DNA of 43,379 bases from a virus (taxonomy: Duplodnaviria > Caudoviricetes). Every line of letters begins with the position of its first letter. Position 1 is the first letter of the stretch. Below the pieces are notes generated by a model. The model was given only the letters and a program-made list of their open reading frames with translations. It searched no databases and was not told the DNA's origin. This document shows, piece by piece, positions 39,295-41,998 of the stretch. Both the position numbers and the translations under genes were made by a program. The DNA lies in IMG/VR virus record IMGVR_UViG_3300026512_000025, positions 1-43,379 of that record; one strand, written 5' to 3'.

Positions 39295-40577
39295 TTATAA
39301 CCTAAATCTTGACACTTTCGCACTCGAACGAGATATGCCGAGTAAATTGTGCGTTACATAACCAAAGGCATCATTCATGTGGTCAGTCCCGTGACTCTTA
39401 TCTGGTGAACCGTCTTTAAGGTACGACTGTTCAATTAAGTTAGATGTTAGTGTTGGACACTTATCCGTGTTGATGAGCACTCTACGATAACCTAGCGAGT
39501 TACATAGAGCTGAGTTCACTGAAACTATTCTATCTCTGACTGGTGGATTCTTCTTTGGTGCTCTAATACCGAACCCTGCTTCTCGTAGCAACCCTATATC
39601 TGACTTAGACGCATCAACTGATTTAGATGAGCGACCACTAGCATCTGGATATATCATTATCTTACGACCTGTGTCGTACCTATCCTTGATAATGTCAATC
39701 ATAGCAGGTGTATCTCTTACATCACTAATCTCATCCAAGACAAGTAACTTATCATACTCCTTGTACGCAACTACTCCACTCATATGGTTAACATTAAAAT
39801 CCATACCTATATGCAAGCTCTTTAAGTCCATCTTAATAGTCTCAAAGCTCCTGTTCTTATCAGGGTCAAAGTTAGGATATACAGTACCTGAGTTAAGATT
39901 AACAAATTTTCCGTTAAGATAAGCATCAATAAGCTGCTCAGGATAAGACTCTTTAAGGTTAATAATATACTCTTTTGGCAAAAACGGGTTATCATATGTA
40001 GATGCTTGAATAAGTTCATAACCATTACGACTCTCTTTCTTCCATCGGTTATAGACAAACCGATAACCCTCAGGTGTAGTATAGACACTAGCTGAGTTTT
40101 TAACCATAGCCATGGCGGTCTTAGGTATAATCTTCTTTCGATTACGACCTAAGAGTTTCTGCCACACCATCTCAGCCTTATCAACTTCCAAGGTATCTAA
40201 TTCATCCACATGAGAGTGATGCACCTCATAACCAATGATACGGTCTGGATTTTCTAATGACCTGAATAACACAGTACCCACATTAGGTATATCAATAATT
40301 CCATCAGTCTTATTTAATGTATAAACTAACCCTGCATTTGATAATATCTCTTCAAAACGAGGGTACATAATCTTTTTAATAAGGTCTACAGTTGGTTCGT
40401 AAATAGCAATTTGTGCGTTCTCTATCTCGAACATCTGTTTTAAGGCTTTCATAACCATAGTTTCTGACTTACCACCACCAACTAGCCGAAGCCAGACACT
40501 AGAGCAGGGAAAGATGCTTGCGAATTAATCATTTTCATTTGGTGTGGTAACATTTTTCTTCTTAGTATTCCAGCCAC
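39295..40577 (-). CDS. terL: Terminase large subunit, split into a 31-codon frame (40577-40482) and main frame (40476-39295), about 424 aa if an 8-nt gap is bypassed
   Basis: AGGAGG RBS + GTG 40577, LPHQ adenine-binding motif, interrupted Walker A SGFG*..GGKS, Walker B HVDE, TTPEG, IGMDFNV, DHMNDA nuclease motifs. Confidence 0.88.
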
Positions 40578-40612
40578 GATAAAACCTCCTTACGTATTGA
40601 ATTTTTCAACTT

Positions 40613-41203
40613 TTACTCCTTAATTATATTTAGCGGTATTTCAGGTAAATTAGCAGAAACATAGTTATTATATGCTTTAGCAGCTTCTTTGGCTGTATCA
40701 TATTTACCTAAGTTTATTTCTTTACCCATATATTTTACTCTAGCTCTATACATAACTCTACCATCTTTAAAGTTATAGCTATATTTAGACACACCCCTAT
40801 AACCTGTCTTGTTAGTTTTATGTAATAAAATAGTGTTTTGACTTTGAATAAGTTTGGTAGTCCATCTGCAATTACTAGGCTCATAGTGTCCATTTGTATC
40901 TATTCTATCCAGTGTTAATTTATCACTATAGCCATTATTTAATGCCCACTCTCTGAAAATAGTAAAATCTTCTCGCCATTGTTTGCACATTAATATACCA
41001 CGTTCAGTATATCGTCTTGAAACGCTGTTTAATGAACCAGAAGTCCTTTTCTTAGCACTATTCCATATAGTATATAATCTTGTTTTATACATACCGTGTT
41101 TACTAGGTCTGTTTTTACCACTGCAACTTCTACATAAATTTGTTTTTGGCTTTCGCTGTAACTCCCTTACTATACCACAATCTTCACATTTTATCTTATA
41201 CAT
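40613..41203 (-). mobile_element. Free-standing HNH-type homing endonuclease gene (Zn ribbon + HNH-like + AP2 domain)
   Basis: CEDC...CRSC, LTLDRIDTNGHYEPSNCRW, AP2-like TGYRGV...YRARV...NLGKYDTAKEAAKAYN. AAGGA RBS before ATG 41203. Confidence 0.88.
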
Positions 41204-41249
41204 TTGATATCCTTTAGTGTAGTATAGCATAGTTACCACCTGTTGAACC

Positions 41250-41336
41250 TTAAACCACTAGGGCTGGGAAAGATGCTTGTGAATTAATCATCTTCATCTG
41301 ATGTGGCAACATTTTTCGTCTTAGTACACCACCCAT
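41250..41336 (-). pseudogene. Truncated duplicate of the terL 5' end (28 codons)
   Basis: MGGVLRRKMLPHQMKMINSQASFPALVV*, 23 consecutive residues identical to terL N-terminus, TAATG-coupled to the upstream gene. Confidence 0.88.
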
Positions 41337-41539
41337 TAATTATCCTTAGTGGTAGCAGCAAGGGCAACGAACTGAACTAAACTTCTAATCGTTTCATCAA
41401 TACTCTTAAGCCCGTTAGCTTCTTTAATATCTCTAAGTATATAATAGGTGTCTCTATTAAGTCTAGTGCCTATATACTTTTTTGAACCTGCTTTATCTCT
41501 TGTTAGGTCTTTATCTGTAGGTATCTTAGTCGCTTTCAA
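41336..41539 (-). CDS. Small RHH-like DNA-binding protein (likely TTG start at 41539)
   Basis: GGAGGAG RBS, KYIGTRL-RDTYYILRDIKE-SIDETIRSLV strand-helix-helix pattern. Confidence 0.55.
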   Translation of the reverse strand: MKATKIPTDKDLTRDKAGSKKYIGTRLNRDTYYILRDIKEANGLKSIDETIRSLVQFVALAATTKDN

Positions 41540-41843
41540 TAAACTCCTCCGTTGCAGTAATTTGCTTAATATCATCTGCAGTCATCTCAATAAACTCAAA
41601 ACCATTGATAGCGTTAATCTGTATGTTAGTCTGAGACTCTTTAGGAGATAATCCAACTATCTTAGCCGCAGATTCAATAACATTAATAGACTCTTTAAGT
41701 GATTTTGAATCACTAGCTGTGTTAATAAACTCAGATGCTTTCTCAACAGCTGCGTAGGTAGCGTCTTTGATAATATCAGCAAGTTGCACATTACCAGAGC
41801 GAAGATTATCTATAGCTTTTTGTTGTTCATCTGTCATATTCAT
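41526..41843 (-). CDS. Putative terminase small subunit
   Basis: First gene of late arm, helical core, AKIVGL motif then beta-strand-like tail. Assignment is positional. Confidence 0.5.
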   Translation of the reverse strand: MNMTDEQQKAIDNLRSGNVQLADIIKDATYAAVEKASEFINTASDSKSLKESINVIESAAKIVGLSPKESQTNIQINAINGFEFIEMTADDIKQITATEEFIESD

Positions 41844-41896
41844 CCTTATTTATATGTTATTGTAGCAAAATGTATGTAAAGTAGCAAGGTTTAGCT

Positions 41897-41998
41897 CAGT
41901 TTGTTAACTTAAGGTTTATTAACTAACACTCTAAAAATTGTTTCCAGTTTGTTAGCTTAACCAAACTTAACTAACACTCTGAAAATTGTTCCCAGTTT
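41897..41998. repeat. Imperfect 48-bp tandem repeat x2
   Basis: cagtttgtta(a/g)cttaa...ttaactaacactct(a/g)aaaattgtt(t/c)c at 41897-41944 and 41945-41992. Confidence 0.8.

Follow-up and report, generated by a model that had tools for sequence, protein, structure and literature searches.

The DNA that we analysed (the window) is a stretch of 43,379 nt, a tailed-phage genome of 33% GC that carries polymerase, helicase, capsid, portal, tape measure and lysis genes; the run that matches it best is from a hydrothermal-vent metagenome. The virus record nearest to it is a contig with an intact terminase gene, and among the genes that it has in common with the intact-allele contig G002 none is broken besides the large terminase gene (terL). 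The window opens with a run of 38 A (1-38), and the segment 8864-14410 (anti-repressor, ssDNA-binding, DNA polymerase A) finds little match in the near-identical G002, which suggests a swapped module.

The features of the terL locus, all on the - strand, are collected in Table 1. The gene starts as a 31-codon frame at GTG 40577 that ends TCT GGC TTC GGC TAG (SGFG-stop); directly 3' of the stop follows TT GGT GGT GGT AAG TCA GAA ACT ATG in a different frame. The remainder of the gene is 99.2% identical to residues 31-424 of the TerL of an intact relative, L001. A homologue search of the window found no second terL, so that 39295-40577 is the sole copy. The original prediction had described this break as a candidate ribosomal bypass inside the Walker A motif; on inspection of the - strand the break and its coordinates were all correct. 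It had further held that the protein called from 40458 lacks Walker A, and the Terminase_6N match of this 387-aa ORF indeed begins only at profile position 52, as compared with position 4 in an intact 424-aa relative.

Table 1. Features of the broken terL locus, with positions in the window.
Feature	Position	Strand	Remarks
Direct repeat ATAATTAA (8 nt), copy 1	41336..41343	-	Borders the 716 nt (stub + HNH) that allele C lacks
Dead stub of original terL start	41250..41336	-	27 native codons (to ...FPALV), then V and TAA
Inserted cassette	40482..41256	-	781 nt in place of 14 nt (vs L001/X2)
HNH-type endonuclease gene	40613..41203	-	196 aa from ATG 41203; AAAGGA 6 nt upstream; phrog_374, E 1.8e-39
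Direct repeat ATAATTAA (8 nt), copy 2	40620..40627	-	Other repeat at allele C joint
Upstream ORF, 15 codons	40562..40609	-	TTG start, GGAG upstream; overlaps terL ribosome-binding site and start
Shine-Dalgarno (SD) AAGGAGG of replacement terL start	40585..40591	-	7-nt spacer to GTG at 40577; not present in cassette-free L001
Replacement terL 5' ORF	40482..40577	-	31 codons, SGFG end, then UAG (stop 40484-82)
Possible hairpin CUGGC-UUCG-GCUAG	40482..40495	-	-4.9 kcal/mol; take-off codon and stop on 3' arm
Predicted take-off codon GGC (Gly31)	40485..40487	-	Final sense codon ahead of stop
Coding gap UAG UU GGU (8 nt)	40477..40484	-	Cassette-derived UAG + native remnant of Phe30-Gly31; predicted landing GGU 40479-77
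Remainder of terL	39295..40476	-	393 codons from resume codon: GGKS, Walker B, nuclease domain; Terminase_6N and 6C

The TAG-TT break does not stem from an assembly slip. The window is of metagenomic origin. In a separate assembly, of run X1, a single contig at depth 25 reproduces 39300-41900 with neither a difference nor a gap; X1 may be the source of the window, so the identical assembly excludes an assembler slip only. Contigs from two further runs, X2 and X5, which belong to two studies other than that of X1, also cross the TAG/TT junction with no gap (40478-40638 at depth 4.3 with a short side of 4 bases, and 40400-40490 at depth 2.6 with a short side of 9 bases). Both fall below the 31-base bridging rule of the mapping tool and are weak by that rule, yet they agree. 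Moreover, the gap falls exactly at a cassette boundary, and a sequencing or assembly error as the cause of the break is hardly credible.

The cassette is missing from L001 and from the main X2 contig (depth 114), in which 40481 and 41263 are joined with 14 letters between them. Against the X6-type allele, the listed differences would make it ~775 nt in place of 8 nt. From upstream, the order is the old terL start, dead after codon 28; the HNH gene; the 15-codon ORF; the SD sequence; a second terL start; the UAG; and the native TT GGT GGT GGT AAG. Alignment to the intact allele shows that the gap is composed of the cassette's UAG and the host's own leftover of Phe30-Gly31. The proposal of an independent bypass element is partly supported, in its alleles and predicted codons; the element is not free-standing, since the gap ends an HNH cassette that also replaces the 5' end of terL. 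Codons 2-27 of the stub show 0 amino-acid and 6 silent differences from L001, and the stub forms an 80-nt repeat at 86% with the second terL copy. Codons 2-31 of that second copy differ from L001 at 15 synonymous and 2 non-synonymous sites (pS 0.72, pN 0.03), against a pS of 0.10 in the downstream gene, which argues that the second 5' copy is foreign and protein-constrained.

The HNH gene has an alternative longer start, GTG at 41239. Its product joins an N-terminal Zn-ribbon-like part to a C-terminal AP2-like part (the AP2 likeness is weak; PDB E 0.026; Atlas) and matches no Pfam family above cut-off. Where it has a DRID motif, a catalytic His is usual in HNH enzymes. None of the 22 relatives listed adjoins a terL of the window's terminase family; they occur in other settings, several of them embedded in long frames for DNA polymerase or helicase (scan of 40 of 110 neighbouring frames, from 16 of the 22 loci). 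The relatives at L135, L139, L142-L144, L146 and L150 lie inside long DNA polymerase A or helicase frames; L135 has a Hint domain, and they are probably inteins. An extended -10-like sequence, TGCTATACT, lies just upstream of the SD of the HNH gene at 41221-41229 (-); it is absent from the list of a promoter scan of the window, whose yield was at chance level (12 vs 10.0). At 41229-41240 (-), 3' of the stub, GGTGGTAACTATG resembles the native GGTGGTAAGTCAGAAACTATG minus 8 nt and is perhaps a decayed remnant of a longer stub. In L157:740-800, an intact Walker A follows a 5' leader that is like the tail of the window's cassette, a possible scar or donor. The 15-codon ORF over the terL start has a similar counterpart in L167, a relative with a one-base (+1) insert in the same loop, and the same frame is closed by a stop in intact L157; the ORF is present in both broken alleles seen as DNA and could have a role in ribosome spacing or coupling.

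It had been predicted that alleles with and without the gap would be found, and both exist: L001, the depth-114 X2 contig and an X6 contig are intact (allele A), while the window (allele B), X1 and low-depth contigs of X2 and X5 are gapped. The alignment of the X6 contig to the window reads '8 left out at 40478'. In a third allele (C), 716 nt of stub and nuclease are gone between the ATAATTAA repeats, with the joint 40619-41336 and 8 shared letters in X3 and X5. A 172-nt X2 contig runs into the second terL copy and across TAG/TTGG; its 2 listed differences in that copy are both silent (His12 and Pro11, by inspection). Its loose end looks to us like the end of the upstream gene, so that the contig appears to represent allele C with the gap retained. 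The gap thus appears to outlive the nuclease, as HNH-less contigs at low depth keep it, and descent of C from B is the simpler reading of the sequences. In X2 the intact allele has a depth of 114 vs 4.3 for the gapped one. In X1, 1 of the 4 aligned contigs covers terL and carries the gapped allele; no intact copy was found among the X1 contigs at a threshold of at least 85%, although contigs drop rare variants.

The geometry of Walker A constrains any rescue. One residue separates the two halves of G[FYLM]G-x-GK[STA] in 109/109 of the listed homologues with the motif and in 80/80 viral loci (the best 80 of 596, from 11/64 parts, by a ranking that favours unbroken genes), so that any rescue must remove exactly 8 nt. 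A hop from 40487-85 to 40479-77 with resumption at 40476 would give 31 + 393 = 424 residues and so match the 99%-identical intact L001 in length and motif, and the invariant spacing upholds the claim that this hop restores the exact length of the motif. Gly31 to GGU at +8 is the only matched-codon hop that keeps the invariant length; by inspection no other nearby codon is matched at +8, and the GGU codons at +11 and +14 would yield shorter loops that are probably dead. Read-through of the TAG alone (TAG is the stop of 8/28 window ORFs) does not rescue the gene, because the frame closes at a TGA 11 codons further. A split TerL with its own start before GKS was also rejected, as there is no in-frame ATG, GTG or TTG ahead of Met38.

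Some other ribosomal event could be considered, either a -1 shift at U UUC CCU (codons 22-24) or a later GGU landing that gives a variant P-loop. Codons 22-24 of the second copy read TCT TTC CCT, which fits the X XXY YYZ pattern with a stem 3', the -1 frame is open from 40524, and in relatives a +1 shift seems to operate at this loop. We nonetheless give this explanation little chance: the -1 product, ...CSSVWLRLVGGGKS, would be three residues longer and would lack Gly29 and Phe30, whereas Gly29 is present in 80/80 viral loci and no length variant occurs in 109/109 proteins.

Removal of the 8 nt or of the cassette at the RNA level, by group I splicing from the stub, a micro-intron or polymerase realignment, is very unlikely. 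Group I introns often hold HNH genes, and the cassette does end in G and hold one. Against this, an Rfam scan of 40300-41500 gave nothing up to E 5; every join of the stub to TT GGT that we inspected either runs into a stop or drops a residue from ALVSGFGGGK, and a group I intron was accordingly rejected. Furthermore, allele C has neither stub nor HNH gene, and there is no homopolymer run at the gap.

Breaks at the same loop occur in relatives. Viral loci were intact in 9/9, 5/5 and 80/80 in separate searches, and 10 of 12 metagenome loci other than the window's were intact. The two broken ones, L167 and L168 (75% identical), have one extra base in the Walker A loop (GGT TTC GGT GGA A GGC AAA), an SD and an upstream ORF similar to the window's and no HNH gene, and their 8/8 differences across terL are silent. 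The insert makes GGA AGG C (L167:740-765, L168:1407-1432), likely a +1 shift at the rare AGG codon; the RQI/RQN tail of this frame recurs in P0123 and P0153 from other phages, and a GTG just upstream of the insert could start a GKS-bearing protein (P0133). The window, L167 and L168 are the only broken loci seen as DNA, the other breaks being known from peptides. The short near-clade N-terminal peptides found leave the frame at residues 30-33 in 8/8, ending in GFG (P0122, P0143, P0184), GFGGG (P0121), GFGGRQI/RQN (P0123, P0142, P0153) or SGLC (P0144); eight distant short fragments (P0145-P0152) that read through an intact motif were left out of this count. Peptides below ~30 residues are probably uncalled, and earlier breaks would then be invisible. 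Equal sizes (4185, 5818, 1602, 3524, 15694) suggest that 5/8 of the short peptides lie on the same contig as a truncated TerL call. The other stop-after-GFG peptides could be intron or intein insertions. P0121 (ending SGFGGG), taken with P0019 and the intact P0126, fits a one-base insert with a GGG-stop +1 site (peptide only). P0143 and P0184 differ from their intact cluster mate P0030 in 8 residues before the break, as if the segment had been replaced.

Among 120 listed homologues, the window's own included, 11 start after Walker A, all of them within the top 60. One 90% cluster contains 6 full-length and 5 387-aa members among 15 of its 18 members listed. A quick tree requires 10 changes, of which at least 6 are forced, to place the 12 rows whose calls begin after Walker A; this is no fewer than in shuffles (92/500 as low), and 7/12 of these rows have no DNA or partner peptide that confirms a break. 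Scans for broken P-loops, with patterns that fit GFG-type loops only, met a terL in 0/3 viral and 0/46 genome hits for the 8-nt geometry and in 0/5 viral hits for the 5-nt geometry; the +1 geometry gave 0 hits. Genome contigs searched for relatives of the window's terL yielded none, and all 925 cultured-phage matches are <60% identical.

The main rival is a defective gapped allele, in which the cassette duplicated five bases on insertion and no TerL is made, the allele being spread by homing or the phage borrowing TerL from co-infecting intact phages. Intact relatives do share the habitat (depth 114 vs 4.3 in X2), an imprecise junction would leave just such a gap, and the silent-rich 5' end could be donor inheritance. 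We consider a defective allele unlikely: within the limits of contigs, which drop rare variants, X1 showed no intact allele; the gap persists after nuclease loss; the broken L167 and L168 differ only silently (8/8); the breaks in the peptides cluster at residues 30-33 (8/8); and there is no decay elsewhere in the genome. With the sole DNA-packaging motor gene interrupted at its ATP-binding loop, and that loop interrupted in relatives too, it is likely that ribosomes pass over the inserted bases to make the enzyme, a mode of decoding with very few natural examples.

Bypass with the take-off and landing codons of the original prediction is, on the sequences compared here, the best explanation. 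We counted in its favour that terL is the sole copy, that its silent-rich 5' end has its own SD, that the gap lasts beyond nuclease loss, that the truncated rows are scattered on the tree and that the terL of X1 is the gapped allele. The RNA signal is the weak part of the case. The UUCG hairpin claimed for the site can form, and its likeness to T4 is weaker than was stated, as the take-off codon sits on the 3' arm. A longer stem, whose loop lies near the gap, competes with it and lowers its pair probability to 0.19 in a 241-nt context. The four hairpin-forming codons are jointly rare in the window genome (0.0003, computed after the fact), and the intact L003 also has the GGC TTC GG loop core. 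The exact hairpin 15-mer occurs in 119 viral stretches (44/64 parts scanned), none of which encodes the window's TerL. An 81-nt region folds better than 2991/3000 synonymous draws (z -2.8), with a fold energy of -26.2 kcal/mol in the window vs -13.4 kcal/mol in L001, and structure confined to the 5' side is unremarkable (364/3000 synonymous draws fold as well). Take-off codon and stop, being on the 3' arm, would be inside the ribosome at take-off, the wrong side for the A-site role in T4. If the hairpin acts, its part is more probably to fold up behind the ribosome or, once the hop is over, to mask the take-off codon; unstimulated stop-hopping at a low level may be sufficient.

We compared the locus with known systems as far as these are described in the parts of the papers cited. 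In T4 gene 60/MobA (Manning and Atkins, 10.1101/2022.08.31.505936), as in the window, an HNH cassette lies in a conserved motif, host bases are deleted and a diverged homologous copy is supplied; the insert ends near the landing codon (2 nt before it in the window); a Gly take-off codon, a UAG and a wobble-matched landing codon are combined (predicted as GGC, UAG, GGU here); and the insert is absent from close relatives, and the nuclease can disappear without the gap. MobA cassettes include some with GGU/GGC as take-off and landing pair, and the MobA gap protects against the element's own nick (10.1101/2022.08.31.505936). Unlike MobA, which targets Topo2L and has gaps of 20-50 nt, the window has a gap of 8 nt in the terL Walker A (Terminase_6). 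The MobA product is a split enzyme with CTE/NTE tails, whereas the window cassette replaces the whole N-terminus and leaves a dead stub that ends one codon after the break; its second copy is a plain terL N-terminus without CTE/NTE tails. Here the UUCG stem has the take-off codon in its 3' arm, whereas in T4 this codon is on the 5' side, and by inspection no mini-SD was seen 5-7 nt ahead of the landing codon, where the sequence is CGGCUAGUU.

The terminase cassette of Hau3 is closer in place and size. MS showed its bypassing in E. coli, with a Gly take-off and UAA in the A site, and in the same source Hau3 and two prophage cases have short gaps (7-10 nt) in the large terminase (PMC10732093). 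A candidate gap of 7 nt, in the terminase of a Streptomyces prophage, has thus been published (PMC10732093), and the word 'minimal' is not borne out for the window's element. Like Hau3, the window has a short frame-breaking gap at a length-invariant terminase motif and a slow A-site codon after Gly; the conserved junction length argues against frameshifting (PMC10732093), and in our reading of the printed sequences the first Hau3 junction, GWG/KDP, looks like a Walker A G-K. Unlike the window, in which the gap begins with UAG and TTA is the commonest Leu codon at 33% GC, Hau3 uses the rare sense codon UUA, proposed to be regulatory; the terminase family is also different, and a nuclease link is absent from the main text of that paper ('HNH' 0 times; PMC10732093). 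TerL inteins at the Walker A P-loop mark this motif as a homing hotspot, and their nucleases cut intein-less terL; they repair the gene by protein splicing, whereas the window has no intein and its nuclease gene is free-standing (PMC5050341). As in non-programmed stop-hops, matched codons flank a stop; those hops are in-frame (9 nt for one residue), synthetic and low-level, whereas that of the window would change frame in an essential natural gene (PMC5009743). Judged by sequence, the window is T4 MobA/gene 60-like in architecture and Hau3-like in place and size, and a member of neither. A literature search, with most subscription journals outside it, turned up no description of a terminase Walker A with a nuclease-linked gap.

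The three alleles, the cassette ends, the frame break and the invariant motif length were seen directly, and we think it probable that a stop-triggered 8-nt bypass allows the homing cassette to abolish its own target site without loss of TerL. In this mechanism the HNH cassette would insert, split the terL P-loop codons and bring a new gene start that ends GGC-UAG. Ribosomes would stall with GGC (Gly31) in the P site and UAG in the A site, and the peptidyl-tRNA would re-pair at the host GGU 8 nt on, one tRNA-Gly(GCC) presumably reading both GGC and GGU. Resumption at 40476 would produce a 424-residue TerL with the native loop and the predicted junction peptide ...FPALVSGFGGGK. The RNA structure around the gap may aid the hop, and a low yield of TerL would be enough for packaging. 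By analogy with MobA and the P-loop intein hotspot, the nuclease may target the intact Walker A codons, and the new codons together with the gap would make the allele immune to it.

Natural bypassing has been described for T4-like topoisomerase genes and yeast mitochondria, with a candidate in one Streptomyces terminase. Because empty, nuclease-bearing and nuclease-lost alleles coexist in near-identical phages, the birth of a bypass site from a homing cassette would be readable base by base. The 14-nt hairpin and the 8-nt gap are small enough for a complete mutational test, and the +1 alleles at the same Walker A loop allow hopping and frameshifting to be compared in nature. Terminase calls that begin just past Walker A, like 11 among the top 60 homologues, may in fact be recoded genes with a wrong annotation. 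More tentatively, and at somewhat less than even chances, the terminase P-loop may be a homing hotspot where free-standing nucleases leave tiny recoding scars, the loop being rescued by at least two tricks (the 8-nt stop-hop, +1 at GGA-AGG-C and perhaps GGG-UAA) that each arose several times and outlive the nuclease. If this is true, bypassing would be a common and easily evolved third route to harmless homing, besides introns and inteins.
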